DNA from: Haliotis cracherodii
Taxonomy: Eukaryota
Direction: 5' to 3'
NCBI RefSeq assembly: GCF_022045235.1
Contig: NW_027266266.1
Coordinates: forward strand, 1,612,001 to 1,676,000
DNA: 64,000 bases
Position 1 is the first letter of the stretch; every line of letters begins with the position of its first letter. The position numbers and the translations under genes were made by a program. Shown piece by piece: positions 9,134 through 60,996 of this stretch. Under the pieces are notes generated by a model. It did no database searches. It was not told where the DNA came from and saw only the letters and a list, made by a program, of their open reading frames with translations.

Positions 9134-11996
9134 ATGAAGACAATGACGATGCTGCATACAACGTTCATCCTCCTCCTCTGCCTGGGATTTGTAGCAGGAG
9201 ACTATAGTTTCAATTATCTTTACAAATGATCATAATATGTGTATTGATGTTAATGTCTTAGCGAGTAGTTGTATGCAGGATGGGTGTGTTATTTGTAGCT
9301 TCGAGTTTTTCGTCTTGCAGTTCTCAACAACAAACCGTGCACGTCCAACATTATTTATAAGCATACACTATTTTTAATCACTAAACAAGTCGTACTCAGT
9401 TTTCAACTATTGAGGCCACTATTCAATTGTCGACCCAGGTTGGCATTTGTTTTATAAATCAGACACGTTATCAGTTGCGTTCGGAACTAGATATATAGTT
9501 TTAAGTCACCCGCACACTCTCTATGAAGTTGAACCCATGGGCTATTTGAGGGACATTTTGTCCGTTGTTGAACGCCACATTCAACAATATTCCAATTGTA
9601 TGATGGCGGCCGGTAAAATATCGAGTGTGGACACACGACTGAACCACGATCAACGGCACAAGGGTACGATGACACGGAATCAACCAAGTTGACCACTGAC
9701 CACAGTTTTCATTCAGTCGCCACTTACAAATATCTGAGGTTGTCTGGACCCGGAAGTTCTAAAGGAGCTGTCCATACGGAGATGACCAACACAGACAAGT
9801 ATATGGACACGTTAAATAAGTAGCTGAATTGGACATTCTTATCTTCGTTAAGATTCAAGTGTTCCGTTGTTTTAAAAAATGGATATGTTTTGCAGAATAT
9901 ATATTGTACCCATGTTGCTACGCATTCAATAACATAAAAAAACATTTGATTCCACCAGATAAATGACTAGGTGCGTTTCTGTAATACACTAGTAATGAAA
10001 AGGGAAACTTATAAACACATGACGTGGCAACTTTGCTTTGTGTTTTGGAGGTGCTTCCTTGAAGAAAAACAAAACTGATGTCATTACTCCATGCTCGGCT
10101 TCCACGAACTGACAGTTCTTGCATGAGCTGAGGTCGTTGCTGAGCTTCTATCTGGGGGAGAAGGTTCTACAGCCAGTGACCTCCACTCCAATAAGTAGCA
10201 GCTCGGGTAAACACGCCTTTGTGTTTCTGTGTATGTTTAGTCTCTGATCTCAGGAAGGTATACATAAGATGGTGATTTCAATACCTGAGGATTACTTTCA
10301 ATTCATGAAAATTATGTTTCCGTCGTCTGTATTCAACCGTTTACACTATCTCATGTACTTCGAATAATATAGCAAAAAACTGTGAAAAGTATCAAATATG
10401 CATGTCTCTCCCCGCCATGTATTTATTTGTCTGTACTGGAATCTATGTGTTTTCAGGTGGAGGAGCTGTGTTCACTCGGTGGGGAAAGACAACATGTCCG
10501 TCAGGAAATGATGTCATGTATAAAGGTAAAAAACATTTCGAGAGATACTTTTTCGGAGCGTCAAAAGGAAGTAAATAAGTTGGGTTTTTTTCAAATGGGG
10601 TCATAGCTGTGTTTTTAAGACATTTAAAAATTGTCAGGGTGTCAGTTGAATCAAAGTAAACTTTTTAAATGGAAGAGCATGTCATCTCTTGAGTAAGGTC
10701 TCTGTTTTGCCTTTCTTCGTTAGGACATATGAAATTAATTTGAAAAGGCCAATATCGAATATACTCCATTTCATGTATGAACAATCATGAATGTACTTTA
10801 CACGAATTGTTTTCGATCAATATTTATCGGTATATAAATCACATATTATTGTATTTTGGATAGCTAATGCTTCTGTGCATTCGATTCCAAATTTATTCTT
10901 GTACGGTTAAATCTACTAGTAACCTAGCTCTACACTGGAGACACAGTATGTTAATCTCCATTCCTATATAAAAAACACTCTTTGGTGTCAGCAATGTTAT
11001 TTATGGTGAGAAGAGATGAGGTTAAACATTGTGTTCACGATGAGTGCACTTGTATAGCGACGTGAATTCACAATCTGTGTGTGGCTGCTTGTGCGAGCCC
11101 TGACTGATGCCAGTTGCATTGTGTAAGCCTACTGAGATACCATAATAACAAGTTGATGAAATGACAATAAGGCAACGTTACATCAAACCATGCAGATTTC
11201 CAAAACATCCATGATTAACCCTGATCATCATGCATACATATCTCATACAACTTCAGTAAACATGCCATGCCCAAGATAGCAGCCCAGCATTATGTTCCGG
11301 AAGAATATCCACATTTCTGGTGTCAGCAATCTCTGCTGGCAAACATTTTACCATTATCTCGTGATATTTCTCGATATAAGGATCACGCGACCTTGATTAA
11401 CTAAGACTTATCAAAGCATTAACAATATGATGAGCACAAGTATTCTCTAAATTATTTGGTTTCCAGGCAACTATTTGTTTTGACTAAAACACAAGTAAAT
11501 GCTAGTCCCTTTCAATCTCCCAGGTTATGCAGGAGGAAGCCATTACACGGCCAAGGGTGGACCAGGGACAACTCTGTGCCTTCCTGACTCTCCGATCTAC
11601 GCCAATCATTCTACCACTGGTTCACGCAGTTATCTTTATGGAACTGAGTATCAAGTTGAACATCCCTCTCTTCCACTACGAAACATGTATGAACATGATG
11701 TACCTTGTGTGGTGTGCCGCAGTCGTCACAGGAGGAGTGCTGTCATGGTCCCTGCCAGGAATGAGTGTTTCCCTCAGTGGAATCTGGAATACAAGGGGTA
11801 CCTCTTCGGGGGAGCCACTTCACACCCAGGTTCAAGTGATTATGTGTGTGTAGATGGAGACCCAGAAGCCATAAAGGGAGGCCATGAAGACAAAAACGGA
11901 CATCTCTTGTACCCGGTGGAGTCCAAATGTGGCGCTCTGCCTTGTCCACCATATGTTGATGGATGGGAGATGACCTGTGCTGTTTGTACAAAATAA
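9134..11996 (+). pseudogene. G1: secreted spongin short-chain-collagen-related (C4-like NC1 domain) paralog, probably disabled or exon-skipping. Exons 9134-9197, 10051-10206, 10457-10525, 11524-11996
   Basis: Signal peptide MKTMTMLHTTFILLLCLGFVAG; exon 3 GGAVFTRWGKTTCPSGNDVMYK; exon 4 YAGGSHY..LCLP..YGTEY..DVPCVVC..EYKGYL..YVCVD..CGALPCPPY..TCAVCTK is intact. Lesions: intron-1 donor is GA (9198-9199) where the paralogs have GT, and exon 2 has TGA at 10110-10112. Family call is confident; pseudogene status is not. Confidence 0.7.
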
Positions 11997-12107
11997 AACA
12001 CTCCATTCAGTCCATACTGTCCGTCAAATATGTACATTAACTGTGTCTTACATACATGCGATAAACACATTCAGCTTTCATAAGACTAACGATATCCATT
12101 GAAAACT

Positions 12108-23800: not shown

Positions 23801-26800
23801 GGATGATATTAGTTACATCTCTTCGTGTTTAGACTAACATGCTCTAAGATATTTGTGAATTTGTTTCGCTATTCATACTTAAAACTGAAACATTAAAATA
23901 TGCATTGAACTGGAACACATAATTAGTGAGTGAGTGAGTTGTGTAAAGCTTTTTCTAATTATTGGTCCAGTTATCAGTACACAAGTATATTTTTCACTGA
24001 ATTGGTTATGATTATGATAACAGAAACGTTCCAATTTTTAAACGGCGTGTCAGCTTAATGTGGAAGGAAAGCCCTAAATGATGCAGGTCTTAAATGTTTA
24101 CCACTTTGGTGAAACCCACGAGCACGGGTATGGTGCTGACAAACCTACAAACATAATCGGGGCGAACTGGGATTCGAACTCACAATCATAGGTTTCTGGC
24201 GTGCCCAAGGGACACAACTCTGCACAGCGAAACGACTGGGCCACCCGTGCCCTCCGAACACATAATGAATTACATGATTTATACAGTGAGAAATAAGTGT
24301 CAGTATTATCAGTCCACTGTTTGTATTGTTTGCATTGTTTTGTCGGTCAACAGATTTGAACGTTACGCCGAATACGTGCTCGTCCGATTAAGAAATGACA
24401 ATTATATTGATAATGATGCATGTAAATTATGCAGACAAACGTTATACAAAATACAAAATAGTGATTGATTAGATATGTGTATCTATCTTAAGTCAGATAT
24501 ACGACGCTTGAGAGCGTCATTAACCAGTATATTCATTCCTTGGACAATAGAAAGTGGATGTGTTGTAAATTTCATTTAAAAACCCTAAACTCTCACAATT
24601 TCCTTCATTCTTACTGTCTTCAGAAATTAAATTCAATGCTAATGTGCTTCTAAAATATAGTTCAACAGATGTTAAGTCGGATTTCCCGACATATTTGTGC
24701 TTATTTGTAAATATCTACCACAGTGAGTCAAACTGATAGACTAACAGACAGATGCACAAACAAAAACTATACTTAAAATATACATACAATATAAGGATGA
24801 CAGCTGATTTAACATATGTTGGATGCCTCTCCATATGTGTAGTGTATCCAAGTACACATATCAACTGTGATAACACCATTGTCACAGCGATGGGAGCGGT
24901 GAGGTAACCTAGTGGTTAAAGCATTCGCTCCTTACTGAAGACCCAAGTTTGATTCCCCACATGGGTACAATGTGTGAAGCTCTGCTGTCCCCACCATGAT
25001 ATTGCTGGAATATTGCTAACAGCGGCACAAAACCATAACGTGATCAAATTACTATATACAAACTTTGTTTTGAGTTTTGTAGGTGCTTCCGTGAAGAAAA
25101 ACAATACTGATGTCATTACTCCATGCTCGGCTTCCACGAACCGGCAGTTTCTGCATGAGCTTAGGTCATTGCTGAGCTTCTATCTGGGGAAGAAGGTTCT
25201 ACAGCCAGTGACCTCCACTCCAATAAGTAGGAGCTCGGGTAAACACGCCTTTGTGTTTCTGTGTATGTTTAGTCTTTGATGTCAGGAAGGGATATATAAG
25301 ATAGTGATTTCAATACTTGATCATTGTTTTCAATTCATGAAAATTATGTTGCCGACGTCTGTATTCAACCGTTTACACTATCTCATGTACTTTGAATAAT
25401 ACAGCAAAAATGCGAAAAGTATAAAATATGCATGTCTCTCCCCGCCATGTATTTATTTGTCTGTACTGGAATCTATGTGTTTTTTTCAGGTGGAGGAGCT
25501 GTGTTCACTCGGTGGGGAAAGACAACATGTCCGTCAGGAAATGATGTCATGTATAAAGGTGAAGCATTTCGAGAGATACTTTTGCGGAGCGTCAAAAGGA
25601 AGTAAATAAGTTGTTTTTTTCAAATGGGGTCATAAATGTGTTTGATTTTATGACATTATAAAACTTGTCAGGGTGTCAGTTGAATCAAAGTAAACTTATT
25701 AAATGGAAGAGTATGTCAACTCTTGAGTAGGGCTCTGTTTTGCCTTTGTTCGTTATAATATATAAAGGCCAATATCGAATATACTCCATTTCATGTATGA
25801 ACAATCATGAATGTACTTTACACGAATTGTTTTCGATCAATATTTATCAGTATATAAATCACATATAAGATATGTATTTTGAATACCTAACGCTGCTGTG
25901 CATTCGATTCCCTATTTAATCTTGCACGGTTAAATCTACTGGTAACCTAGCTCTACACTGGAGACACAGTATGCTTATCTTCATTCTTATATCAAAAGCA
26001 ATCTCTTTGGTGTCAGCGATGTTATTAATAAGGTGAGATAAGATGAGCTTTAACGTTGTGTTCAAGATGATTGAACTTGTATAGCGACGTGAATACACAC
26101 ATTCTATGTGTGGCTGCGAGTTCTGACTGATGCCAGTTTCATAGTGTTACCCTACAGAGATACCATGCTTCATGCATACCTCACTTAGATGCATATAATA
26201 CCTGCCAGTCCTTGTTTTATCCCCTTTGAAGCTCGTTCACGAAGATTTCGAAGAGCATCAGAGAAAGCAGATTATAGAGTTCTGATACAACTTCAGTAAA
26301 CATGCCATGCCCAAGGTAGCAGCCCAGCATTATGTTCGGGAAGCATATCCATATTTCTGGTGTCAGCAGTCTCTGCTGGCAAACATTTTTACCGTTATCT
26401 CGTGATATTTCTCGATATAAGGATCACGTGGCCACGTTTATCACGCTGAAAATAGTGTTCGCATTTGCTTACACACGTATGTTGTACTTGGTTTAAATGA
26501 TGTACACTCGCCTGTTGCTGTGAGATTTCACGTCATTTTATCCATATGAGATATCAACGTACTTTGTACATGGTCTACATTCGCGGTTGCTGGTAGAAGT
26601 GGACATGCGTACCCATTCTGCGAACATCAATATTTTTCAGCTATCCATCTACATAATTTCACTACTATTTTGCCTTTTACACCCAATGGAATCTGTTTCT
26701 GTGAACAATCGAAATTGAGTATTCTCGGGCGTTGACGTTTTATATTTGTAAAAGGGTAAGCTTTCAGATGAAAAATGATCAATAGAATTCACCTCTTGTC

Positions 26801-27423
26801 TTGCCAAAGACTCAGTAAATTGATAAACTAAGACTTATGAATTCATTTACAATATGATGAGCACAAGTATTCTCTAAATTATTTGGTTTCCAGGCAACTA
26901 TTTGATTTGACTAAAACACAAGTAAATGCTAGTCCCTTTCAATCTCCCAGGTTATGCAGGTGGAAGCCATTACCAGGCCAAGGGTGGACCAGGGACAACT
27001 CTGTGCCTTCCTGACTCTCCGATCTACGCCAATCATTCTACCGCTGATTCACACAGTTATCTTTATGGAACTGAGTATCAACTTAATTATCCCTCTCTTC
27101 CACTACGAAACATGTATGAACACGATGTCCCTTGTGTGGTGTGCCACAGTCGTCGAAGGAGGAGTGCTGTCATGGTCCCTGCCAGGAATGATTGCTTCCC
27201 TGAGTGGCATCTTGAATACAAGGGGTACCTCTTCGGGGGAGCCACTTCACACCCAGGTTCAGGTGATTACGTGTGTGTAGATGAAGACCCAGAATCCATA
27301 AAGGGAGGCCATGCAAACAAAGACGGACATCTCCTGTACCTGGTCGAGTCTATCTGTGGTGCCCTGCCATGTCCACCATATGTTAATGGCTGGGAGATGA
27401 CCTGTGCTGTTTGTACAAAATAA
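20847..27423 (+). CDS. G2: secreted spongin short-chain-collagen-related (C4-like NC1 domain) protein, 253 aa. join(20847-20910,25083-25238,25490-25558,26951-27423)
   Basis: All GT-AG, phase-1 introns and an uninterrupted frame: MKSMTMLHKTFMLLLCLELVAG + ASVKKNNTDVITPCSASTNRQFLHELRSLLSFYLGKKVLQPVTSTPISRSSG + GGAVFTRWGKTTCP.. + ..CGALPCPPYVNGWEMTCAVCTK. Motif and Cys pattern match the sponge short-chain collagen C-terminal domain family. Confidence 0.9.
23167..23560. mobile_element. Non-autonomous MITE-like element with internal purine-rich GAGAAAGCRATA tandem repeats, in G2 intron 1
   Basis: Start TATGGTGGCTGAGGGGGAACATCG is close to the reverse complement of CGATGTCCCCTCTCGGCTACCATA, which ends related GAGAAAG-containing pieces at ~3285-3338 and ~50130-50177. 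Confidence 0.5.
24038..24255 (-). mobile_element. tRNA-derived SINE (family C); internally deleted + strand copy at ~34475-34582
   Basis: Minus strand has GGTGGCCCAGTCG (A-box-like) and GAGTTCGAATCCC (B box). Body GTGCTCGTGGGTTTCACCAAAG..CACATTAAGCTGACACGCCGTT is shared with the 34.5 kb copy. Confidence 0.65.
24892..25040 (+). mobile_element. tRNA-derived SINE (family A), ~40 bp upstream of G2 exon 2
   Basis: GGTAACCTAGTGGTTAAAGC..GATTCCCCACATGGGTACAATGTGTGAAGC..GATATTGCTGGAATATTGCTAACAGCGGC. Confidence 0.82.
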
Positions 27424-31089: not shown

Positions 31090-31495
31090 CACGTCGGATT
31101 TGTAGCTACCACAATAACCACCGTCACATCGCGCATTTAGACGTTGCTATCACATGTCCAAGGAGGTATATGTGATTTGTAGCTTCCACAATAGCCACCA
31201 TCACAAAGCGAAGTAATTCGTTGTTATCACACGTCCAAGGAGGTATATGTGATTTGTAACTTCCACAATAGCCACTGTCGCATCACGCAGTAACTCGTTG
31301 TCTCACGCCCAAGGGGGTATATGTGATTTGTAGCTACTTCAATAACCACCGTCACATCGTGCAATATGTCTTTGTTATCACACGTCCAAGGAGGTATTTG
31401 TGATTTGTAACTTCCACAATTAGCCACCGTCACATCACGCAGTAAGTCGTTGTTATCACACGTCCAAGGGGATATATGTGATTTGCCGCTTCTGT
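31090..31495. repeat. Diverged 77-bp satellite family, ~5 monomers
   Basis: TTATCACACGTCCAAGGAGGTATATGTGATTTGTA(A/G)CTTCCACAATAGCCAC repeated at ~77-bp spacing. Confidence 0.85.
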
Positions 31496-31544
31496 AATGA
31501 GCACTTTAAGCATTCAATCTGGGTTTTCACCATCTAACACCGCC

Positions 31545-33470
31545 TACTCTGGTATGTTCATCACCGACTGCCCTGTCATAGGTGTGCTCATGTCCAGTCG
31601 CCATGACATGTGTTTACTCATGACTGACTGCCATGACATTGGTGTGCTCATGCCTGGCCGCCCTGATAATGGTGTACTCATAACTGACTGCCATGAGATT
31701 GGTGTACTCTTGCCTGGCCGCCATGACATCGGTGTGCTAATGCCCGTCCACCATGACATTGATGTGTTCATGACTGACTGTCATGACATTGGTGTACTCA
31801 TGACTGACTGCCATGACATTGGTGTGCTAATGACTGCCATGACATTGGTGTGCTCATGCCTGACTACCTAGACATTGATGTGTTCATGACTGACCGCTAT
31901 GACATTGGTGTGCTAATGACTGCCATGACATTGGCGTACTCATGACTGACTGTCATGACCTTGGTGTACTCATGACTGACTGCCATGACATTGGTGTACT
32001 CATGACTGACTGTCATGACCTTGGTGTACTCATGACTGACTGTCATGACATTGGTGTGGTCATGACTGACTGCCATGACCTTGATGTACTCATGACTGAC
32101 TGCCATGACATTGGTGTGGTCATGACTGACTGCCATGACATTGGTGTGGTCATGACTGACTGCCATGACATTGGTGTACTCATGACTGACTGTCATGACA
32201 TTGGTGTGGTCATGACTGACTGCCATGACCTTGGTGTACTCATGACTGACTGTCATGACCTTGATGTACTCATGACTGACTGCCATGACATTGGTGTGGT
32301 CATGACTGACTGCCATGACATTGGTGTACTCATGACTGACTGTCATGACATTGGTGTGGTCATGACTGACTGCCATGACCTTGGTGTACTCATGACTGAC
32401 TGCCATGACCTTGGTGTGGTCATGACTGACTGCCATGACCTTGGTGTGCTCATGACTGACTGCCATGACATTGGTGTGGTCATGACTGACTGCCTTGACA
32501 TTGGTGTTGTCATGACTGACTGCCATGATATTGGTGTACTCATGACTGACTGCCATGACATTGGTGTGCTAATGACTGCCATGACATTTGTGTGCTCATG
32601 CCTGACTACCTAGACATTGATGTGTTCATGACTGACCGCTATGACATTGGTGTGCTAATGACTGCCATGACATTGGCGTACTCATGACTGACTGTCATGA
32701 CCTTGGTGTACTCATGACTGACTGTCATGACATTGGTGTGGTCATGACTGACTGCCATGACCTTGATGTACTCATGACTGACTGCCATGACATTGGTGTG
32801 GTCATGACTGACTGCCATGACATTGGTGTACTCATGACTGACTGTCATGACATTGATGTGGTCATGACTGACTGCCATGCCCTTGGTGTACTCATGACTG
32901 ACTGCCATGATATTGGTGTGGTCATGACTGACTGCCTTGACATTGGTGTTGTCATGACTGACTGCCATGATATTGGTGTGGTCATGACTGACTGCCATGA
33001 CATTGGTGTACTCATGGTTGACTGACATGACATTGGTGTGGTCATGACTGACTGCCATGACATTGGTGTACTCATGACTGACTGCCATGACATTGGTGTG
33101 ATCATGACTGACTGCCATGACCTTGGTGTGCTCATGACTGACTGCCATGACATTGGTGTGGTCATGACTGACTGCCATGACCTTGGTGTGCTCATGACTG
33201 GCTGCCATGACATTGGTGTGGTCATGACTGACTGCCATGACATTGGTGTGGTCATGACTGACTGCCATGACATTGGTGTGCTCATGACTGACTGCCATGA
33301 CCTTGGTGTGCTCATGACTGACTACCTAGACATGGATGTGTTCATGCCTGGCCGCCATGACATTGGTGTACTCATGACTGCCATGACATTTATGTGCTCA
33401 TGACTGACTACCTGGACATTGATGTGTTCATGACTGACCGTGTGCTATTTCTGTGCTCATGACTGACTGC
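31545..33470. repeat. 30-bp minisatellite (GACATTGGTGT(GG/AC)TCATGACTGACTGCCAT), ~60 units, with a 742-bp higher-order duplication
   Basis: Direct inspection. The irregular block at ~31830-31940 recurs 742 bp later (ORFs 31897 and 32639). Confidence 0.97.
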
Positions 33471-41400: not shown

Positions 41401-41680
41401 CCGCAGTCGTCACAGGAGGAGTGCTGTCATGGTCCCTGCCAGGAATGATTGCTTCCCTGAGTGGCATCTGGAATACAAGGGGTACCTCTTCGGGGGTTCC
41501 ACTGAACACACAGGTTCAAGTGATTATGTGTGTGTAGATGAAGATCCAGAATCCATAAATGGAGGCCATGCAAACAAAAACGGACATCTACTGTACCTGG
41601 TCGAGTCTATCTGTGGTGCCCTGCCATGTCCACCATATGTTAATGGCTGGGAGATGTCCTGTGCTGTTTGTACAAAATAA
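38434..41680 (+). CDS. G3: secreted spongin short-chain-collagen-related (C4-like NC1 domain) protein, 253 aa. join(38434-38497,39273-39428,39678-39746,41208-41680)
   Basis: Open frame through all four exons: MKTMMMLHTTFILLLSLGLGAG; ASLKKNKTDVITPCSASPNRQFLHELRSLL..; GGAVFTRWGKTTCPSRND..; ..WEMSCAVCTK. The exon-2 acceptor is the rarer GAG, so a 201-aa skipped form is possible. Confidence 0.87.
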
Positions 41681-44820: not shown

Positions 44821-44886
44821 CACGGTAATGAGGCTTCAAATACTCGTTGTATTTGAAGCTGTTGTATTTGAAGCCTCATTACCGTG
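44821..44886. repeat. Perfect 23-bp inverted repeat with 20-nt spacer
   Basis: CACGGTAATGAGGCTTCAAATAC (44821-44843) and GTATTTGAAGCCTCATTACCGTG (44864-44886). Confidence 0.92.
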
Positions 44887-46509: not shown

Positions 46510-47105
46510 AAGGATGTCTAATGGGGTATATGTGATTTGTAGCTTCCACAATAACCACTGTAACATTGCACAGCAATTCCATGTTATCACGTATCTAAGA
46601 GTGTAAACAGGATTTGTGGATACCGCAATAACCACCGTAACATCGCGCAGTAATTCCATGTTATCGCCTGTCTGAGAGTGTAAACAGGATTTGTAGCTTC
46701 CACAATATCCACCGTAACATCACAAAGTTATCACCTGTCCAAAGGGTAAAGGTCATTTGTAGCTTAGCTCAGTCGGGATAATCGCCTACACAAGGGGAAA
46801 TATGGGATTTACCGTCCCAATATTCGTCTGTGATCATGACCGACTGTCCGACATTTGTGTGTTCATACCCGACTGCCCCGTCATTGGTGTGTTCATGCCC
46901 GACTGACCTGACATTGGTGTGATCATGTCCGACTGTACTGACATTGGTGAGCTTATGACCGACTGTCCCGACATTGCTGTGCTCATGCCCGACTGACCTG
47001 ACATTTGTGTGTTCATAACCGACTGACCTGACATTTGTGTGTTCATGCCCGACTGACCTGTCATTGGTGTGTTCATGCCCGACTGCCCTGTCATTGGTGT
47101 GTTCA
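46510..47105. repeat. Diverged 77-bp monomers (46510-46800) followed by 30-bp minisatellite (46835-47105)
   Basis: Colinear with 15505-16230; unit GACATT(G/T)GTGTGTTCATGCCCGACTGACCT. Confidence 0.88.
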
Positions 47106-48397
47106 AGAATGTGCCTGAGAAAGTAGTACAGTCAACATTATGTTTGTGACGTCATAATGACCTTAAGGTCATAGTCAGTGACAATAGCGTCAGGGGTAAA
47201 TGCATTGCTGTGTGAGTCCACATATACACAGAGAACTACAGAGGGAAGCATTGATAATAATACTTTTGAATTAGGTTGGAGTTTCAAAAGCCTAATGAAC
47301 ATTTTCTCTTTTTCATTCGTAAATGGGTATCAATGTTAAAAAATTTATTACACGAAAAAACACAGAAACGGCTTACATGTATGCAACGAACATTTGGATC
47401 TCGAATTTACTGTCTCTGAACAGTCATGTGTGTTTTTAGCTGCATACAAGTTTCCCCACATTAATACTCTCATCATTAGTGTGTTTATGCCCGGACATTT
47501 ATGCGCTCAATGCCCGACCGTCCTCTCATTGCTGTGCTCAAGTCCTGACATGGGTGTGCTCATGCGAGATTGATATTAGTGTGACATTGGTGAACGGATG
47601 AACAACTGTCCTGACATTGGTGTACTCATGACCAACTGTTCACAAGCGACGCGTCATGTTTAGCAAGTTCCTCTGAATGTCTACCATAGAGTGTCAGGAA
47701 TTACCCAAACAGGAGTACGATGGTGTTATCTTTATTGAATGGGTTAGATGTAAACAACACACGTGTTTCCGTCTGGATAATATGAACATGCTTGGACCTA
47801 TGGTATATTGCTCTCCTGAAAAGAAATGTATGGTGTCACAATAGAAATTGTCCCTCTTGTCAAACATCTTGGTACAGAGACTGCTATCATTTTGAATTTC
47901 TATGCACAGATCCAGATATGTTGTTTTCAGCTTAAATCTTAATTGTAATCATAATTAACTGCAGGTGTTTACTGGCTAGGATAACAAGGCTCAGGCATCT
48001 TGTCTTTCGTGTTGTGAACTTCGAACTGCATCATTTGCATAAGCACCGGTCAGCAGGGTAGGTCAAGTGTGCAGTCAGTCTGGGTTATCACCTACCTGAG
48101 GGGGTATATTTGATTTATAATGCTTTAACAACTGTAAAACCCTGCAGTCATTCGTAGCTCTCACTATAACCACTGTGACACAATGCATTCTGTAATTATT
48201 TGATGTGAAATATTGTCACGTGGCGTTTTTATCTGTCTTGTATGCACGCTATGTTATGAACACCGCCACTACCGCCACTACCGCCACTACCTCCAACCCC
48301 CACCCCCATCCCCCTTATATCCGTATATTAAATGATCAGCCACTTAAGGAGACTGAGGTCTCCTTTAATAATTATTTGCTGTGGTTTTACGTATATA

Positions 48398-50058
48398 TAC
48401 TCTCTCAAAAAGGGAACGCATAACGAAAATTGTAATTTGATGAAGAAATGTAACAGGGTGGGTTTTTCAAAAATATTTGTTTTGATAATGATTTCTCTGG
48501 TGTTTGTCTTAAAACGTCATATCCAAACGCATCCCGCATGAAAAACACGTATGTTAAACCATGATTTTCGATAGACGCATTTAATGTCACAGAACACGTT
48601 TTGCACGTGCAATGCGCGGGAAACTCGGGGACCACCTCGTGTCGTGGATGGGTATAAAAGATCGATCTCCGTCTTTTTTCATTCACTTTATTTGGAAGTT
48701 TGTGAAGACTGCAAAATGCCAAGACTGAGCCGCGCCAATCGTCACATCGCCATAGGTCTCCTGGAAGCAGGACAATCTCAACTCACAGTTGCCCGTCGAA
48801 TGAATGTTCATCAAAGCACGATTTCCCGTCTCTGGGAGAGATATCGGCAGCAGAACTCGGTGGAAGATGGGCTTAGAAGTGGACGTCCTCGAGTCATCAC
48901 TGCGGCGAAAGACAGGTACATCCGGGTACATCACCTGCGTCAGCGAACAGCTACAGCGACCACTACCGCTAGGCAAATACCCGGATTGAGAAGGATGTCT
49001 GCACAGACTGTCAGGAACAGACTACGAGAGGCAGGTTTAAGAGCAAGAAGACCCTACTGTGGCCCCGTTATGCGTCAGCAGCATCGACGTCATCGCGTTC
49101 ATTTGGTGAATTGGAGTCGAATCTGGTTCAGCGATGAATCAAGATTTTTGTTGGAACGACGCGATGGAAGAATGCGGGTGTACAGACGACGTCATGACCG
49201 TTTTGCCGACGCCTGTGTCCCCCAGGTGGACAGATTCGGCAGGGAGGGGGGGGGGGGGGATGATGTGGGGAGCCATATCCTACACTGGAAGAAGTGAGTT
49301 GGTGTTGATCCAAGGCAACCTGACAGCGCAACGCTACTGCGATCAAGTCCTTCGTCCACACCTCCTTCCCATTATCAACCGCCAGAGGGAGCTATTCCAG
49401 CAGGATAACGCCAGACCTCATACGGCACGTGTCACGAGGGCCTTCCTCCAGAATGTGAACATCAGTGTGCTGCTTGGCCCTCCGGATCACCAGACTTAAA
49501 CCCGATAGAACATCCGGATGCCCGGGACAGACGAGTGCGACAGCGTTACCCACAGCCCCAGACACTCCAGCAACTAGCACATGCACTACAGGCAGAGTGG
49601 GCTACATTGCAGCAACATCAGATTCAGAGACTAATTCGTTCTATGCCGAGACGATGTCGCGCAGTTCTGAACGCAAATGGTGGTCATACGAGGTACTGAC
49701 TTCAGCGCCATCAAACGTCGATGTGTGATTCATAAACTGACTTTTTCTGCTGTCTTATTAAACAGTGATATCTTGACATTTCCTGTGTAAAATTTCTTCG
49801 AATTCCATTTGCTATTAACTTGTCCACAGTGTATCAAAATAAAAAGAAATCTGTAGTTTAAATTCTTATATGCGTTTCTTTTTTGAGAGAGTGAGTGAGT
49901 GAGTATGGTTTTACGCTGCTTTTAGCAATATTCCAGCAATATCACGGCGGGGGACACCAGAAATGGGCTTTCACACATTGTACCCATGTCGGGAATCGAA
50001 CCCGGGTCTTCGGCGTGACGAGAGAACGCTACCCGACCGCCCCTTTTTTGAGAGAGTA
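48398..50058 (+). mobile_element. Tc1/mariner (DD34E-type) transposon, near full length; transposase 48716-49699 frameshifted
   Basis: TIRs TACTCTCTCAAAAGGGAACGCATA and TATGCGTTTCTTTTTTGAGAGAGT(A), with TA TSD. Protein MPRLSRANR..HTH..RSGRPR..WFSDESRF..MMWGAIS..FQQDNARPH..SPDL..IEH..GGHTRY*. Frameshifts at the G-run ~49245-49259 and near 49470. The paralogous site at ~3205 is empty. Confidence 0.95.
49893..50043 (-). mobile_element. Family A SINE inserted in the right TIR of the Tc1 element, 14-bp TSD
   Basis: TTTTTTGAGAGAGT at 49879-49892 and 50044-50057; (GAGT)n tail; GGGTTCGATTCCC B box on the minus strand. Confidence 0.92.
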
Positions 50059-52008
50059 TACTTTTTATCGTATATAGACACAATACACATGCCCCCCAAA
50101 AGTGGCCAAGAGGGGATATTGCTCTCCCGCGAGAAAGTGATAGAGCGATAGAGCGATGTCCCCTCTCGGCTACCATAATATACCGCATCAACACAAATTG
50201 CAAATTGACATGTCTAAACTATCTACTGTAATGCTTATAAAACAAGTCAGTGGATGAGGTCTTTATTAACTTTATGTCGGATGTGGCAATATACTGGCGT
50301 TTGAATCTTAAAAGACCTGGAGAACCAGTAATGAAAATAATTAATTAACAAATTAACCCGTGGTATGAACAGAATAGAGAGCATAACAGATGAGGGATGG
50401 AAAAGACAAATTGTTGTATGTTTGTTGTTTAACGCCGATATTCCAGCTATATGAGGATTGTCAGTAAATAATCGAGTCTGGACCACACAATCCAGTGATC
50501 AATATGATGAGCATCGATTAACGCATTTGGGTTACGATGACACGCATTATCCAAGTCTGAAATAATAGTAATTATAGTATAGCAGATTCCACATTGTGGA
50601 TGCAAGCTAACTGGCGGGTTCCCCATGCGAAAACAACACTTTGCTGCTGAAACTGACACAAAATATCTGCCTATATTTGTTTATTAAGAAGCCATGTCAA
50701 GTACCCCTTTATGGCTATGGCCGCATTACCGTGAACTAATATCACACGACACCCTACATACAGACTAGAGTATCACTTCTAAATGCCTTTCTAAGACCTT
50801 GAGTGACCAATTTAAGCCGGTAAAATCAGCAATAATATTTCATATAATCTGTTGGATTGTTCTAATTTTTTAATTTAAAGTTTGATATACGGCTTTTTCC
50901 ATTACAAGAGAGGCCGGTCACATGACTGATCCATCCTTGTGAAAAATACACCTTAACTATTGTAATATCGACTCCATTTTAGTCTTGGCTGACATTTACA
51001 GTCTACAGCAATCTATGAATTTACCTTCGTATCTATTTGACACATAATCTTCTTTATCATGACCTTCCAATGATCGACCAACTGATCAATGAAGAGGAGG
51101 CTCATTTACAACTTCGGCCATCGTGTCGGCCATTTTGACGTCTTTTACTTGTAAATGTTGTAAATGTATTAAGACGCGCTGTCATTGTACCCGACTTACT
51201 GAGGTAGTTCTTAACAGACCTTTCTCATCAAATGATATTATTTGAATATATTTGTTATAAACAAACTACAACAGATGTTCCCGTAGAGCAAGTTGAGCAT
51301 ACAGACGCTCACGTGACTTCTCGTTTTTAGGGAACTAAGCTCCGACGTTCATACAGATTGGCATGTAAAGGTTCTTAAATATAGACTGATGCATTTTTTA
51401 TTTGTCACTTGTGAGCAGTGGGTATTTAGCCGTACCACTTGAACAATGACTGGCTCTGGTCTGTTGTCACTGTTCACATTCATATCGATTACATTCTGTG
51501 TCACATAGAGGGACGTTGAAATTGAAAACAGCCAACACTACTTACTGTGAATACTTATCGGCTGCCTTTGTCTGACCAACTCAGTTATAAAAGCTTAGCA
51601 CAGATGGTCATAGCACATCACGATTGAAAGTCAGATTTGAATTAAAAATATAAAATCGATTTCCACCTCTCCCCACGTATATGCAGCACCTGCCTGAAGG
51701 TGGCATGTCCTGTTTTGAAATATTATCAGTTGTCACTATCATTGAGGGATGGAAGAGTAGTGAAACTTTCGTTCACTCGGATGGGGACCGGGGACTGATT
51801 TCACAAATGCCCTGTGTATTCAATCGATATTACTGCAATGTTGTTTAAAGCTTGCTTGCTCATTCGACAATTATTTTGTAATTATTGCAACATTTCAGTT
51901 TGCTTTACTTGTTAATTGATTTTGTATGCATACAAATGTTCTTGAGATCATAGATATAGCGAACTATGACAGTGTTATTTCAAATAATTGGTTATGCATC
52001 ATTACATA

Positions 52009-54006
52009 TACTCAACAACTAAAGTTCCTGTGACACCAATATTTAAGTGTATTTTTCAAACAAGTAAAGTTTGGTTTTCAATATTGTAGTACATGTATGT
52101 AATCAAGTCACAAAAACGCAACTGCTACAGAAAAGCATGCATTCCATGCAAAAGTTGACTTTTATGCAAGCCCCAAAATCGCTACATCCGGGTTCCACAG
52201 CTGCAGGACCATTTCACCACGGCGGCGTCAACATCCTCACAACTACCGGGACTGCATCGAATATCGGATCATACTGTTCGAAATCGTCTGAGAGCAGCCA
52301 GTATTCTAGACAGGAGACCCGTGCAGCGTAACATCCTGCCGCTGCATCATCTCCGTGCACGTCTGCAGTGGTGTCATCAGAGAGTTAAAAGCATTAAGCA
52401 GATGGAGAAGTGTTCAGTTCACAGACGAGTCCCGTTTTCTGCTGGGACGTGCTGATGGACGCGTGTACGGACGTCGTAACTAACATTATGCTGAAAATTG
52501 CGTTCAGCAAGTGGATCGTTTTGGAGGTGGAAAACGTCATGGTGTGGGGAGGCATTCATCACGGAGGCCGGACAGCGCTTGTAGGAGTGGATGGTTCTCT
52601 GGGCTACGCTACCGAGACGAGTTCCTGCAGCGCCACGTTGTCCCCTCCATCAACGCCAATGGCGCCATCTTTCAGCAGGACAAAGCCAGACCCCACGTCG
52701 CACGTGTTTGCACAAAGCTTTTGCGTCAGAACAACGTGCCTACGCTACCCTGGCCTGCCCGCTCTCCAGACTTGTCCCCCTATCTGTGGGACGTGCTGGA
52801 TCGTCGTGTCCGTCAACGTCAACCACCGCCACAGACACTTCAGGAACTATTTGCTGCACTAGAGCAGGAGTGGCAGAACATCCCTCTGGCTGTCATTCGG
52901 ACTTCGATGGTGTCTAGTGGCAGTCGCTGATAGCAGCTCTAAGCAGGCCGTGATGGTTACTGATGGTTTCTGTTCAGTGCATATTGATACATCGCAAAGA
53001 ACAATGAAAGAACGAAGGGTTGTTTATTTTACGATAAAACATTGTTTTATCATGGCGTCTTTTCTGGAGACGTCATTTATTAGACTACGTTATATTTTAG
53101 AGGGGAGTGTCCGATGAGTTGTTCCCCATAGATGTAGCTAGGCAACGCAGAGAAACGCAACTGCCGATCAATCACATCCAAAGTTTAGAGAGATATGACG
53201 ATTGTCATTGGGAAAAGGTGCAGGTAATCGATGTAAGGACTGAGAATGTGTGGGAAATACCCACCTGTGCATAAAATGGACTTGTCCGACATTGACGAGG
53301 TCGGATTCTATTAAGGGAGTCATCAAAATTCAAATACGGGGAAATATTTTGTAACCTTTTACATTTCATCATCAGCCTTTATGAGGTTGTACATAATGTA
53401 GATATCCCTTCAACAAAACAACGTGAATGTCGCTCCCCTGGCCTCTCACCAATCGAGCACATGTGGGCCGGGATGAGATGGATCGGTGCCTTCGACGTCA
53501 ACCACGTGTTCCACGACACTCCAGGAACTGCTCCAGCAGATATGGACAGATATCCCACAGGACTTTGTGCGACGCCTGGTCTGTTCCATAAGACGAAGAT
53601 GTGTTGCTTGTGTACCGGCCATAAAATTTCCGAGTCCCGTGATGGGATTCGAACCACTCACCTTCTGATCCGAGGTCGGACGCCTTGTCCACATGACCAA
53701 AGAGGTTAACCCCGTCAGCATGCTGACAAGGTAAGGATGTCATCTGTGGGATGACTCCACGTCCTGCTACACTTGCATCGCCACCAAAGGTGGACACACA
53801 TAATATTGATTTGTAAATTGACATTTTGGCATGTTCATGTTTTTTATGAATTCACACATTTTCTGAAGTCACTATGGCAGATTAACCATTTTAACACTAA
53901 AAGGAGTCTTTTATCTGTTGCAAACCGAAATTGTTTCAGATTTGGTAAAAAACATAACTTTGCATTAAATCTTATTCAATGTAACAGGAACTTTTGTTGT
54001 TAAGTA
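52009..54006 (+). mobile_element. Duplicate of the composite degenerate Tc1/mariner element at 5296-7248
   Basis: Same TIRs and TA flanks; ORFs 52410-52930 carry VMVWGGI, FQQDKARPH and WPARSPDLSP. Confidence 0.88.
53611..53771 (-). mobile_element. 161-bp solo LTR-like insertion (TGTA..TACA, 4-bp TSD CTTG) carrying a tRNA-Arg(TCG)-like sequence; Helenus-type TRIM candidate
   Basis: Empty paralogous site GTTGCTTGCATCGC at ~7010-7023. CTTG at 53607-53610 and 53772-53775. Minus strand reads TGGTCATGTGGACAAGGCGTCCGACCTCGGATCAGAAGGTGAGTGGTTCGAATCCCATCACGGG. Confidence 0.78.
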
Positions 54007-57000
54007 TATTTATTTTCGAAATAACATTATTATACTCACAAAAGCCTTTCTCCTGGCCAGGTATCACAACAGTGAAAGATCAACTGTGTCTTAAAACTGC
54101 TAAGACATGGCTTTATATAATCAAGAGACAAAACGCATGCTTTTCACATGTCAAAATGGTGTTATTTGGGCGACCCGTTCCAGTATTAAGGATGACATCT
54201 ACCCCTACTAAAATACACCTCAAAAGTTATGATAAAAGAGCACATGGTGTGACAACAAGTGCTACTCATGTAGCCAGTGTTACAATGACGATGGCCAGTG
54301 ACGGACATTCCAAATGTACGGACACTGACTCCGAAGACCCCGCGGTAGCCCGGATACAGTGACGTTCAGTGCTGTGTAACTCTGTCGCTGCACGTGCTCT
54401 CACCGAGGGGGAATGTTTCACGCGACAACAGAAAGCACTATCTGTTGACAATTAGATGATGTGCGGCTCTTCTGATCTCGCATCCAACCATGAAAGAATT
54501 AAATTGTTTTATAGGCATTACTTAGAAGTTGGCGTATGACAAGGTAGACACAATTTTTATGGATAACAACTTCTTTAATACTGTAAAAAGCGACGTTTCG
54601 GTATAGATACTTATACCGTTGTCAAGCACGATCGCTTTTTACAGTATTAAAGAAGTCGTTATCCATAAAAATTGTGTCTTCCATGAAAGGATTTGCAATA
54701 GTATGTTTGACATTTTCAAAAATGAGAGTTGGAGATTCATAGTGACGCCGACTGAATGCGTGACTGTTATAGTGCTTATTGTTGACATGACAGTGCGTGA
54801 CACAGTTGAAGCGTTCGGAATATTGATGATATTTTAAAATATATGTTGCCTATAGAAACCTTTGGGTGAGATTTAACATTGCATCACCGTGTATGATTTA
54901 CTGTAGTGCCATGTGACTTTCTCAATTAAAGTATATTGGAAGCCTGACTTAAGCAATAACAGTTGGACATGATCATGCAGGCAGATAGAGCATTGTGTAT
55001 AAATCAATATGGTGCGTGTGGATGTTTGTGACTCGGGCAGTTAACTGTGATGCCGTACTTGGTAACAGATGAGGTTTAGCTTTGAAAACCTTACATGTAT
55101 TTCTGTTTTTTCTGACACAGACTCTACCAAAATGTCATGTTTGTGTAATTGCTTGCATGAAACTCAGAAAAGATTAGTAGATTGTGCTTACTAACGGATG
55201 AAGTTTAGCTTATATAACATCCGTTATTGCTGACAAGGCGTTTGTGTAATTGTTTACATGAGGCCCAGAAAAGATTAAAAGCCCTGTCAATAATAATACA
55301 ACATCTCGTGTTGTGAAATACAAAGCACAGTTATCAAACAACTCACAACAGCAATGTTCGAAAGTATAAATAAGTTATTCTGAGGAGAATATCACATCTT
55401 CTTTATTAAATGTTTGTTTTACATTCCTGGCATGGTAGGCCTTATAATTTGCATGTGGACATTCTACAGAGCGACAGAAACACGCACTCTATACACAGAT
55501 GCGAGACAGTCCCACATACAGATGATATGTAATATTTTATAACAGGGGGATGGGGTAGCCTCAGAATTAAAGCGTTTGCTCGACACGCCGACAACCCGGG
55601 TTCGATTCCCAACCTCTTTACAGTGTGAGAAGCCAATTTCTGTTGTCCCCCGACGTGTTATTGCGGGACTATTGCTAATGGCGGTGTAAAACAATACGCA
55701 TTCACTCACTCTGCAGTGTTAAAAGCAAACCATGCAATACTCGTCATCCAATGGGTAACAGGTACACTGTGCATCGTAATATTCATATATTACTGCAGCT
55801 CCAATCCTTGATGTATACTTTTGACATTTGAGGTATAATCTACTAAGATATCAAAGAGCATCATACTGCTCTTGCTCAGAAGTTGTTTGATCAAGGTTAC
55901 ACGACTCAAAGCCTTTGTAAAGCTTTCAAAATGTTAATGGTAGGCAGTTTTATGTTTAGGACATTTCCAAATTTAACGCAACAGTGACAAACATGACAAT
56001 GCCATTCCTTATTTTATGTTATCATATGTTCCTGTGTTTATTCAGGTGATCAATTGACTTGCCTTTGTATGTGTTTGTGACGGATATCACCGGTTGGGCA
56101 GGATACGCTCGCATGGTGTCGGGTGCAATTCTTTATTTTGTGCCATATAATCCTGTGTTTTTTCAGAAGATCAATTGACTTGTCATTGCACCGGTTGGCT
56201 CGCCTTTTCGCGAACACCTGGTGTCATCACTACCTGATAGTTACTCATAAACACAATCATGTCCATGACACAGTCGGAATCATACAATCGACTTTAACAG
56301 AGACTTCTTGTGGCTATGGAAAGGGACTTTTCCCTTTATTGATATCTATTGAATATTCTCAACGTGGGTTTAGGCAAACAAAAACCTACATTTGTTTTTA
56401 TTTGTTAAAGTGTTTGTTGCGGAACATACTTACCTTTGCACGAACACCTGGTGTCACCACTCATTTTAAGTGATGCAGTTGTAATCACACCCTAGCATGA
56501 TGTGTGTCCTGTCATTGTCTCATCTTCTCTTCTGTTACTCATTCATCAATAATAATTTTCACCACTATTTTGCCTTTCTCTCCCAACGGAACATCTTTCA
56601 ATTGTGTAAAGTACTGAAATAGATTGCATACAACCCTCATCTTTAGTACTAGGTCCCTGTCTGTGAAAAACAACACAACTGGTTATGTATATTATGGACG
56701 CTCTTATCATGCATTTTCATTCACTTTCATTTTACAGAATGATTAACGGGTATTTCGCACATTCAGAATATTTGGTTGAATTATTAAACTCTCACAGTAG
56801 ATGATCCTTCCTTTCCGTTCTTGTGTTTAGTTTACCTTTAACAAAGTTCATCTTCCAAAACATAACAATCTGTCTCCCGAAAACAGACAATTCACCTGTG
56901 ACTGCACTGTCGATAATGTCAGCTGATTAAGCCAACATGTTGCATCCTCTCTGATATGCGTTCGTCTCATAACCATAAAGATCACAACGATACTTTCAGC

Positions 57001-58264: not shown

Positions 58265-60996
58265 ATGAAGTCAATGACGATGCTGCATACAACGTTCATC
58301 CTCCTCCTCAGCCTGGAACTTGGTGCAGGTTACTATAGTTTCAATTATCTTTACAAATGATCATAATCTGTGTATTGATGTTAACGTCTTAGCGAGTAGT
58401 TGTATGCAGAATGGGTGTGTTATTTGTAGCTTCGAGTATTTCGTCTTGCAGTTCTCAACAACAAACCTTGCACTTCCAACAATATTTATAAGCATACACT
58501 TTTTTAATCACTAAAAAAGTTGTACTCAGTTTTCAACTATTGAGGTCACTATTCAATTATCCACCCAGTTTGGTACTTGTTTTATAAATCAGACACGTTA
58601 TCTCTGGCGTTCGGAACTAGATATATAGTTTTTATTCACTCGCACACTCTCTATGAAGTTTAACGCATGGTCTATTTGAAGGACATTTTGTCCGTTGCTG
58701 AACGCCACATTCAGCAATATTCCAATTGTATGATGGCGGTCGGTAAAATATCGAGTGTGGATATATAAGCATTTGATTCCACGAGATAAATGACTAGGTG
58801 CGTTTCTGTAATACACTAGTAATGGAGAGGGAAACTTAAAAACACATGATGTGGCCACCTTGCTTTGTGTTTTGGAGGTGCTTCCTTGAAGAAAAACAAA
58901 ACATGTCATTACTCTGTACACGGCTTCCACGAACCGACAGTTCCTGCATGAGCAGAGGTCGCTGCTGAGCCTCTATCTGGGGGAGAAGGTTCTACAGCCA
59001 GTGACCCCTACTCAACAAAGTAAGAACTCGGGTAAACACACCTTTGTGTTTCTGTGTATGTTAAGTCTTTGATGTCAGAAAAGTATGCATAGGATGGTAA
59101 TAATGAAAATAATGAAAAGAAAAAACTTAAAAACACATGACGTGGCCACTTTCCTTTGTGTTTTGGAGTTGCTTCCTTGAAGACAAATAAGACTGATGTC
59201 ATTACTCCGTGCTCGGCTTCCCCGAACATTCAGTTCTGATGGTGATTTCAATACTTTATGATTGCTTTCAATTCATGAAAAGTATGTTGCCGTCGTCTGT
59301 ATTGAACCGTTTACACTATCTCATGTACTTTGAATAATACAGCAAAAAATGCGAAAAGTATAAAATATGCACGTCTCTCCCCGCCATGTATTTATTTGTC
59401 TGAACTGGAATCTATGTTTTTTCAGGTGGAGGAGCTGTGTTCACTCGGTGGGGAAAGACAACATGTCCTTCAGGAAATGATGTCATGTATAAAGGTGAAA
59501 CATTTGGGATAATTTTTCGGAGCGTCAAAAGGATGTAAATAATGTGGGTTTTTTTTAAATGGGGTCATGATTTTTTATGACATTTTAAAAATTGTCAGGG
59601 TGTCAGTTGAATCAAAGTAAACCCTGTAGGCTCTGTTTTGCCTTTCTTCGTTGGGACATATGAAATTAATTTGAAAAGGCCAATATCGAATATACCCCAT
59701 TTCATGTATGAACAATCATGAATGTACTTTACACGAATTGTTTTCGATCAATAGTTATCGGTATATAAATCACATATTATTGTATTTTGGATAGATAATG
59801 CTGCTGTGCCTTCGATTCCAAATTTAATCTTGCACGGTTAAATCTACTGATAACCTAACTCTACACTGGAGACACAGTATGTTAATCTCCATTCTTATAT
59901 CAAAAAAACTCATTGGTGTCAGCAATGTTATATATGGTGAGATGAGATGAGGTTTAACGTTGTGTTCAGGATGATTGCACTTGTATAGCGACGTGAATTC
60001 ACACATTCTGTGTGTGGCTGCTTGTGTGAGCCCTGACTGATGCCAGTTGCATTGTGTTAGCCTACTGAGATACCATAATAAGAAGTTGATGAAATGACAA
60101 TAAGGCTACGCTACATCAAACCATGCATAAATCCATGATAAATCCTGATCATCACGCATACATATCTGATACAACTTCAGTAAACACGCCATGCGAACAT
60201 CAATATTTTTCAGTTATCCATTTACATAATTTCACTACTATTTTGCCTTTTAAACCCAATGGAATCTGTTTCTGTGAACAATCGAAATTGAGTATTCGCG
60301 GTCGTTGACGTTATATATTTGTAAAAGGGTAACCTTTCAGATTAAATATGATAAATAGAATTCACCTCTTGTCTTGCCAAAGACTCGGCAAATTAATTAA
60401 CTAAGACTTATCAATGCATTAACAATATGATGAGCACAAGTATTCTCTAAATTGTTTGGTTTCCAGGCAACTATTTGATTTGACTAAAACACAAATAAAT
60501 GCTTGTCCCTTTCAATCTCCCAGGTTATGCAGGAGGAAGCCACTGCGGGGCCAAGGGTGGACCAGGGACAACTCTGTGCCTTCCTGACTCTCCCATCTAC
60601 GCCAAGCATACTACAGCAGGATCAGGCAGTTATCTTTATGGAACTGAGTATCAAGTTGAACATCCCTCTCTTCCACTGCGAAACATGATTCAACACGATG
60701 TACCTTGTGTGGTGTGCCGCAGTCGTCACAGGAGGAGTGCTGTCATGGTCCCTGCCAGCAATGCGTGCTTCCCTGAGTGGCATCTGGAATACAAGGGGTA
60801 CCTCTTCGGGGGAGCCACTACACACACAGGTTCAAGTGATTACGTGTGTGTGGATGGAGACCCAGAACCCATAAGGGGAGGCCATGAAGACAAAAACGGA
60901 CATCTCTTGTACCCGGTGGAGTCTAAATGTGGCGCTCTTCCTTGTCCACCATATGTTGATGGTTGGGAGATGACCTGTGCTGTTTGTACAAAATAA
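58265..60996 (+). CDS. G4: secreted C4-like NC1 domain paralog, intact only if exon 2 is skipped. join(58265-58328,59426-59494,60524-60996), 201 aa; exon 2 (58878-59031) is frameshifted
   Basis: Exons 1, 3 and 4 are open and joined in phase 1; donor is GTTACT. Exon 2 is 154 nt (2-nt deletion at ACTGAT). A partial second exon-2 copy at ~59169-59241 ends in TGA. Could be a pseudogene. Confidence 0.68.

Follow-up and report, generated by a model that had tools for sequence, protein, structure and literature searches.

Probable copy-by-copy loss of an old in-frame exon in one sub-lineage of an abalone NC1-like gene array

Gene layout and the encoded domain

The question raised by this locus is whether an internal exon is being lost from duplicated genes whose remaining exons stay open, and whether a weakened splice site came first. 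The window, meaning the whole 64,000-nucleotide stretch of Haliotis cracherodii (black abalone) DNA that was analyzed, contains four genes, G1 to G4, that belong to a tandem array of spongin-type NC1-domain genes. The array spans C3:1.35-1.80 Mb and comprises 15 copies, all with exon 4 and 14 of them with exon-2 sequence. The array paralogs differ by an internal exon, the ancestral exon 2. Searches of the open literature listed no paper on this array. An earlier note had described the exon and proposed that it decays in parallel in several copies. Its description was confirmed: exon 2 measures 156 nt and has phase 1-1; G2 has a TAG acceptor (25080-82), and G1 (10048-50), G3 (39270-72), and G4 (58875-77) have GAG; and omission of the exon preserves the frame, giving 201 instead of 253 aa (lengths that apply from the ATG 9 nt upstream, as in the RefSeq models). 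A skippable, symmetrical exon with long and short forms is likewise supported.

All gene parts lie on the plus strand. G1 consists of a signal-peptide-like exon 1 coding part read from the upstream ATG (9134 to 9197), an intron-1 donor, GAGACT, in which GA replaces GT (9198 to 9203), a GAG acceptor with a G2-like exon 2 body (10048 to 10206; exon, 10051 to 10206), exon 3 (10457 to 10525; 69 nt, phase 1-1), and the open coding part of exon 4 (11524 to 11996). In G2, the exon 1 coding part (20847 to 20910; donor GTAACT) is followed by the TAG acceptor and an intact exon 2 (25080 to 25238; exon, 25083 to 25238), exon 3 (25490 to 25558), and the exon 4 coding part (26951 to 27423), and the RefSeq model is XP_071092850.1 (253 aa). 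G3 has the same donor, GTAACT, after its exon 1 coding part (38434 to 38497), a GAG acceptor with an open exon 2 whose helix is intact (39270 to 39428; exon, 39273 to 39428), exon 3 (39678 to 39746), and an open exon 4 coding part (41208 to 41680). G4 combines an exon 1 coding part (58265 to 58328) that has the weak donor CAG/GTTACT, a GAG acceptor with a decayed, 154-nt exon 2 (58875 to 59031; exon, 58878 to 59031), a duplicated 5' part of exon 2 with its own GAG acceptor (about 59099 to 59239; first base, 59169), exon 3 (59426 to 59494), and an open exon 4 coding part (60524 to 60996); its RefSeq model, XP_071092851.1, is a 201-aa protein without exon 2. Exons 1, 3, and 4 are open in all four genes (597 nt counted from the second ATG).

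In G2, exons 3 and 4 encode a 10-Cys NC1-like domain. The AlphaFold model of G2 (pLDDT, 78) had its best Foldseek matches among collagen IV NC1 domains (E=1e-5; probability, 1.0; TM, 0.38-0.43), and VIA gave a Z of 7.4 with an rmsd of 4.2 over 146 aligned residues; only 2 of 48,161 chains reached a Z of at least 2, and both were NC1. Pfam and PDB sequence searches returned nothing significant and no family. The predicted structure thus bears out the NC1 assignment of the earlier note and argues for homology of the C-terminal domain to collagen IV NC1. The G2 domain has 10 Cys and lacks the HSQ motif; G4 has 11 Cys. Spongin short-chain collagens are described in PMC5395295 as having ten Cys (7 common with collagen IV and 3 of their own) and no HSQ, a comparison made here by count and not by positions aligned to a named spongin. 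No Gly-X-Y run of four or more was found in G2, and Pfam Collagen had no match in P0076, P0094, or P0008. Because a Gly-X-Y region is absent before NC1, the array proteins are regarded as collagen-less relatives and not as spongins proper.

The product of exon 2 is a short helix with a Ser/Thr/Pro linker; in the G2 monomer model, helix 40-55 has a pLDDT of about 54 to 62, and its flanks fall below 50. The earlier note had suggested a long form possibly oligomeric or disulfide-linked, for which this helix or the Cys of exon 2 would be the candidate segment. The helix is present in 46 of 54 Haliotis proteins (with Cys in 43 of the 46 and a sequon in 17), and an outgroup gene at C3:6.22 Mb has a four-exon layout identical to that of the array genes. 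Because of this shared layout and the frequency of the helix, exon 2 is judged, on sequence comparison, to be ancestral.

Origin of the GAG acceptor and distribution of exon-2 lesions

The five copies with a GAG acceptor formed one clade in the tree of exon 1 plus flanks (100/100) and also in the intron-1 tree (100/99), and copy C was the sister of that clade (100/100). C was omitted from the exon-2 counts, G10 from the exon-1 and intron-1 trees, and copy A, which has exon 4 only, was used in the exon-4 tree alone. The exon trees were discordant among themselves, those of exons 2 and 4 splitting the GAG copies. These copies are nevertheless united by exon 1, by intron 1, and by the bases immediately before the acceptor. 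The split is therefore read as conversion or recombination, independent origins of GAG were rejected, and GAG is one inherited change common to the five copies. Given such discordance, clean domain exons may owe their state to gene conversion, which also lowers the counts for exons 3 and 4. Sequencing error behind GAG or the 2-nt deletion was rejected, each being present in at least two copies. A 3-kb intron-1 deletion considered as a marker of the GAG clade was dropped; the two kinds of intron end have no relation to each other, and the TAG-type end contains a repeat with 36 matches in the cluster. Intron 1 is 98.7% identical between G4 and G8, which might be alleles placed in tandem, and their changes were counted as a single event.

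Exon 2 is open in G2 and G3. In G1, it carries a TGA stop at 10110 to 10112; in G4, 2 nt are deleted after 58902 and a stop follows at 58949. The frame of the G4 partial duplicate, which is most like G3 and is without the 2-nt deletion of G4, is closed by a TGA at 59237. These lesions had been reported correctly in the earlier note. Array-wide, there are three independent exon-2 lesions (the G1 stop, the G4/G8 2-nt deletion, and a half-deletion in copy C), all of them in the GAG clade plus its sister C. Exon 2 is open in eight of eight TAG copies and broken in four of the six others (one-sided Fisher test by copy, p=0.015); by lineage, it is broken in 3/4 versus 0/4 (p=0.07). That both lesions in the window lie in exon 2 has a post hoc probability of 0.043 by length alone. 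Copy C has a 201-aa ortholog in H. rufescens (195 of 201 residues identical) and lost exon 2 by deletion before H. cracherodii and H. rufescens split. The claim of parallel decay was thus overstated: GAG is a single inherited change, and real exon-2 decay is limited to G4 and its twin G8, with none in G3.

The earlier note had also held the domain exons to be intact in every copy. Their frames are indeed open in all four genes of the window, but the exon-1 donor of G1 reads GCAG/GAGACT. GT stands at this site in all 12 of the remaining exon-1-bearing copies, and the neighborhood of G1 exon 1 offers no good rescue donor in an open frame. G1 is therefore not intact beyond exon 2 and, because of the GA donor, is likely a pseudogene and not the short-form gene that had been envisaged. 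The TGA and the GA each concern a single base in G1 alone, and either might be an error or an allele.

Selection, splice forms, and alternative explanations

On the G4/G8 branch, exon 2 acquired seven nonsynonymous and no synonymous private changes plus the frameshift, versus five and three in exons 3 and 4, which are 3.5-fold longer (rate contrast, p=0.006; the 7:0 versus 5:3 contrast was not significant, p=0.2). Seven nonsynonymous changes of seven fit neutrality (p=0.14) better than an omega of 0.4 (p=0.015). At 4% divergence, 597 neutral nt should have gathered roughly 5 lesions in each lineage, and the count was zero (P0=0.006). The expected number is rough; it was estimated from intron gaps, leaving out the terminal one in every intron-3 alignment, and is inflated by homopolymer slippage. 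Exon-4 pN/pS was 0.40 within GAG lineages and likewise within TAG lineages (overall range, 0.36-0.40), with no sign of positive selection; pooled exon-2 pN/pS differed little (0.48 for GAG and 0.38 for TAG copies). Release of exon 2 from selection while the domain exons stay open is supported for G4 by these sequence comparisons.

For G3, that part of the earlier proposal did not stand. Exon 2 on the G3/G7 branch has three nonsynonymous and four synonymous changes (neutrality, p=0.07; omega of 0.4, p=0.40), with more of both classes than exons 3 and 4 (nonsynonymous, 3 versus 1, p=0.034; synonymous, 4 versus 1, p=0.011).

We consider it most probable, at roughly 0.55, that an old, likely optional exon 2 is being lost copy by copy in one sub-lineage, likely by splice-form subfunctionalization within a birth-and-death array. 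Exon 2 is an in-frame exon that was probably optional already, and one sub-lineage of the array would lose it in one copy after another. G4, if transcribed and spliced from exon 1 to exon 3, would likely yield a short secreted NC1-like domain only; G1 is likely dead, and the long form would be retained by G2 and likely also by G3. GAG may lower exon-2 inclusion without abolishing it, and the driver would be drift, with degeneration and complementation among redundant copies, and not selection. The firm ground of this account is the layout, the lesions, their confinement to one clade, the one GAG origin, and the exon-2 decay of G4 and G8; against it stand the unobserved exon 1-exon 3 joint, the weak G4 donor, the discordant exon trees, the excess of exon-2 over exon-3 and exon-4 changes also in G3/G7, the nonsignificant 7:0 versus 5:3 contrast, the small pooled pN/pS difference, and the broken domain exons of E and G10 elsewhere in the array. 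The exon-less copies have open frames and a pN/pS of about 0.4, and no transcripts were assigned to G1, G3, or G4.

It is rather unlikely that G1 and G4/G8 are all dead or dying copies whose domain exons are clean through recent death or gene conversion. The two G1 lesions, the weak exon-1 donor of both G4 and G8, the discordant trees, and the broken or fragmentary state of copies E, G10, and A (domain exons are broken in E and G10) would fit that view, as would the exon-2 share of array coding lesions (3/6; p=0.11, post hoc). However, G4/G8 exon 2 has seven replacements and a frameshift with exons 1, 3, and 4 still open, and the short gene C is maintained in two species. A plain-pseudogene reading is likely correct for G1 alone.

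The order proposed in the earlier note, in which the change from TAG to GAG turned a constitutive exon skippable so that all GAG copies, including G3, mostly skip it and decay, is doubtful and distinctly unlikely. GAG is the least preferred acceptor (PMC2699507), the lesions of full-length exon-2 copies are confined to GAG copies, and transcripts with non-G3 exon-2 letters showed no skipping among the joints listed. Nevertheless, exon 2 of G3/G7 keeps its helix and shows no decay, and the RefSeq model of G7 runs through exon 2 via GAG. For two H. rufescens genes of the other, D-like sub-group, RefSeq annotates both an isoform that contains exon 2 and one that lacks it, identical over the last 176 aa, and because of these isoforms skipping is likely older than GAG; the deletion in C before the species split also makes an acceptor-first order doubtful. 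The exon-1 end protein sequence is identical in the short C ortholog, reads of which could be the source of those isoforms. A partial H. rufescens model, XP_046365806.2, is G4-like. The RefSeq predictions for G4, G8, and C are proteins of 201 aa that lack exon 2, although a model that skips a frameshifted exon is no proof of splicing; G1, G3, G5, E, and G10 had no model among the matches listed (which leave out 3 of 18 of one cluster). On G3, four contig sets guessed to be RNA (of 21 runs listed; none of the sources listed is recorded as RNA) gave exon 1-2, 2-3, and 3-4 joints and no exon 1-exon 3 junction among the joints listed, a weak test with exon 1 covered in one of the four sets and rare forms prone to loss from contigs.

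Selection for dedicated free-domain genes, with exon 2 removed repeatedly and a short protein with a job of its own, is very unlikely: three independent losses in one clade, the conservation of C across two species, and the abundant secretion of a cuttlefish homolog by the oviduct gland (PMC3484142) would suit it, but the counts are compatible with drift, G3/G7 retain exon 2, and positive selection was unseen in exon 4. Also very unlikely is a live series of every exon-loss step under selection for a dedicated monomeric NC1-like secreted protein, maybe a waterborne signal like the homologous cuttlefish "sex pheromone" precursors, with long copies oligomerizing via the exon-2 helix and G3/G7 tuning the ratio through a working GAG.

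Comparison with known systems

If copy-by-copy loss is correct, the array is a compact invertebrate case that sets the stages in the loss of a symmetrical exon from duplicated genes side by side at a single locus, and a test bed for whether skipping comes before splice-site weakening and for GAG acceptor efficiency. The general view would not change; the case is real but small, and its kind is already known. The homology to secreted precursors of cuttlefish may prove more useful to follow up.

The array proteins resemble the spongin short-chain collagen-related proteins (RefSeq "short-chain collagen C4-like"; PMC5395295) in their NC1-like fold, 10 Cys, and lack of HSQ. In coral and sponge homologs, a Pfam collagen repeat precedes the NC1-like domain, whereas in abalone the exon-2 helix and Ser/Thr/Pro linker occupy the place of the Gly-X-Y region. 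The Sepia officinalis SP-alpha/alpha-prime "sex pheromone" precursors (H9XQ25 and H9XQ26) are 39% identical over 196 aligned residues (E=3e-45) and share with the abalone proteins (PMC3484142) secretion, a length of about 250 aa, a short N-terminal piece, and a cysteine-rich domain. They are a functional lead only; reproductive expression or dibasic processing in abalone would be conjecture.

In splice-form subfunctionalization, as described in Lambert et al. 2015 (PMC4417111) and Abascal et al. 2015 (PMC4494069), an ancestral gene with alternative splicing gives rise to paralogs that each settle on a single splice form, and paralogs differ in exon structure as they do here. Unlike in those cases, the putative ancestral cassette in abalone is drawn from annotation, and the genes form a young tandem array in an invertebrate, subject to gene conversion. 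The abalone array also holds the intermediates side by side: an open GAG exon, a stop, a frameshift, and a half-deletion.

Organization of the array and its exon 2 lesions

The window spans C3:1,612,001-1,676,000, and RefSeq proteins of Haliotis cracherodii match its genes exactly. The four window paralogues (G1 to G4) lie on the plus strand, and the coding sequence of each is divided into four exons, of 55 (64 if an upstream ATG is used), 156, 69, and 473 nt, with all junctions in phase 1. As the earlier note reported, exon 2 is preceded by TAG in G2 and by GAG in G1, G3, and G4; the stop at 10110 in G1 exon 2 and the 2-nt deletion plus partial duplicate in G4 exon 2 were both present (p = 0.043 for two lesions landing in exon 2, on exon length alone). 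Its claim that the domain-side exons are intact held for the open frames of exons 1, 3, and 4 in all four copies, but not for the G1 exon 1 donor, overlooked there, which is broken (GCAG/GAGACT). No strong in-frame GT or GC was found nearby before a stop, so both the long form (253 amino acids, with exon 2) and the short form (201 amino acids, exon 1 joined to exon 3) are blocked in G1. The G4 first donor (CAG/GTTACT), also overlooked, is without the usual purine at +3 and is presumably weak; GTTACT is common to G4 (window 58329-58334) and array copy G8 (C3:1749716).

Across C3:1.332-1.826 Mb, 15 exon 4 copies were found, 14 with exon 2 sequence. In eight (B, D, E, G2, G5, G6, G9, and G10), exon 2 follows a TAG acceptor and is open, with an in-frame 6-nt deletion in G6 and G10. 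Five have GAG: exon 2 is open in G3 and G7, has the stop in G1, and has the same deletion and duplicate in G4 and G8. In copy C (L050; C3:1407591-1411567, minus strand), an older short-form gene, a deletion has removed the exon 2 acceptor and the 5' half of the exon. Domain exons also break, by a 2-nt deletion in exon 4 of E and by a 1-nt deletion in exon 3 and a stop in exon 4 of G10 (exon 1 not found), and A is exon 4 alone within this stretch; the abalone NC1-like cluster is therefore a birth-and-death array.

Gene order repeats at a higher level in C3:1.63-1.80 Mb (G2~G5~G9, G3~G7, G4~G8, and G6~G10), and the G4/G8 pair may represent tandemly placed alleles. Minisatellite arrays with periods of 77, 30, and 33 lie between genes of every repeat unit (window 1274-2879, 15777-16230, 17546-18939, 31097-34367, and 46534-47105). 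A duplicated element of ~5 kb, 85 to 92% identical (window 2999-8591 and 48191-55350) and with a plus-strand ORF of 240 amino acids (48575-49297), is probably a mobile element. Ten remoter family members, 41 to 71% identical in exon 4, lie at C3:6.22 Mb, C3:6.47-6.50 Mb, C6:8.9-9.0 Mb, and C6:13.67-13.73 Mb.

Origin of the GAG acceptor and decay per copy

Trees of exon 1 plus flanks (support 100/100) and of the first 430 nt of intron 1 (100/99) unite the five GAG copies in one clade, which gives GAG a single origin rather than three parallel ones. Copy C is sister to this clade (100/100), intron 1 is short within it (545 to 853 nt versus 3.3 to 4.4 kb), and its members have in common the sequence directly preceding the acceptor. 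Unlike in the exon 1 tree, G1 exon 2 clusters with G2/G5/G9 (94/94), G7 exon 4 falls outside the G1-G5/G8/G9/C group, and the nearest relative of the G4 partial duplicate is G3. We read this conflict with the exon 1 and intron 1 trees as conversion and unequal crossing-over. Three independent exon 2 lesions all fall in the six-copy clade of GAG copies plus C, with none in the eight TAG copies (post hoc p = 0.015 by copy and 0.07 by lineage); array-wide, exon 2 holds three of six coding lesions (p = 0.11, post hoc). As judged from sequence, the recurrent element is the lesions and not the acceptor change.

The proposed parallel decay of exon 2 applies to G4/G8, which have, besides the frameshift, seven private nonsynonymous and no synonymous changes in exon 2. 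Among the seven are the loss of the exon 2 Cys and an L-to-Q replacement within the helix. Exons 3 and 4 of this pair have 5 nonsynonymous and 3 synonymous private changes (rate contrast, p = 0.006; N:S contrast, only p = 0.2). The decay does not extend to G3/G7 (3 nonsynonymous, 4 synonymous, helix intact) or to G1, where the stop is the sole private change. Pooled pN/pS was 0.38 (TAG) and 0.48 (GAG) for exon 2 and 0.40 in both for exon 4. Under a rough model of neutrality, each lineage should have gathered ~5 lesions in exons 1, 3, and 4, versus 0 seen in the window, an argument that conversion weakens. A Tyr-to-Cys change in G4 exon 4 (window 60542-60544) creates an eleventh domain Cys, also in G8 and in the long-form gene G9; G4/G8 have in addition lost the exon 2 Cys. 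A hypervariable loop (window 27040-27120 and the matching part of every exon 4) occurs as two main types shuffled among paralogues, and the basic RSRHRR-type motif beyond it we take to be a possible convertase site.

Exon 2 as a probable optional exon

The four-exon layout recurs in the outgroup gene at C3:6.22 Mb, which, in the stretches examined, is the only remoter member with an exon 2 homologue; among the 54 Haliotis proteins obtained, which represent four species, the exon 2 helix is present in 46. RefSeq predictions omit exon 2 (201 amino acids) in G4 (XP_071092851.1), G8, and C and give 253 amino acids for G2 and 268 for G7, where exon 2 is entered through GAG. The H. rufescens orthologue of C has 201 amino acids (195/201 identical), LOC124126695 and LOC124126693 are each predicted to yield isoforms that include exon 2 and isoforms that skip it, and a partial model resembling G4 has the PC-to-LY change in common with it and starts just past the G4 deletion position. 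All of these are predictions, and cross-mapping may affect them. Annotated isoforms of H. rufescens P0079, P0087, and P0090 differ by one Gly where exon 3 begins, perhaps through a tandem TAG/GAG acceptor, or are spliced from a donor within exon 2. The only read evidence comes from four contig sets, whose RNA origin is a guess, aligned to G3. The joints listed are exons 1-2, 2-3, and 3-4, so at least one paralogue is spliced to the long form; no exon 1-3 joint was among them, which says little on skipping.

We favor, at a probability of about 0.55, a reading in which some redundant copies are becoming fixed for the absence of exon 2. The exon would have been optional before the copy-specific losses; G4/G8 and C would then have become short genes and G1 a dead gene, with G2 and likely G3 retaining the long form. 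The GAG acceptor likely reduces exon 2 inclusion; GAG ranks last in acceptor preference but does find some use (PMC2699507). That the lesioned copies are plain pseudogenes is rather improbable. Less probable still is the order in the earlier note, acceptor change first and skipping second. An adaptive split into two forms is very unlikely. Short-gene models for the array are already in RefSeq, and literature searches found no publication on it.

The encoded domain and known systems

In the predicted G2 structure, a domain that starts near residue 75 is modeled with confidence and matches collagen IV NC1; the helix at 40-55 (hydrophobic moment, ~0.5) is modeled with low confidence. Precursors of the Sepia officinalis SP-alpha "sex pheromone" (P0159/P0162; UniRef H9XQ26 and H9XQ25) match window 25490-27423 at 39% identity over 196 amino acids and, on this alignment, are homologous to the abalone NC1-like domain. 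They were left as an unknown class in 2012 (PMC3484142), and our literature search found no published link of these precursors to such a domain. The G2 domain has 10 cysteines and no HSQ, like the spongins described in PMC5395295; unlike these, the abalone protein is without a collagenous region. The abalone exon 2 case is probably of the same kind as the splice-form subfunctionalization outlined in PMC4417111 and PMC4494069.
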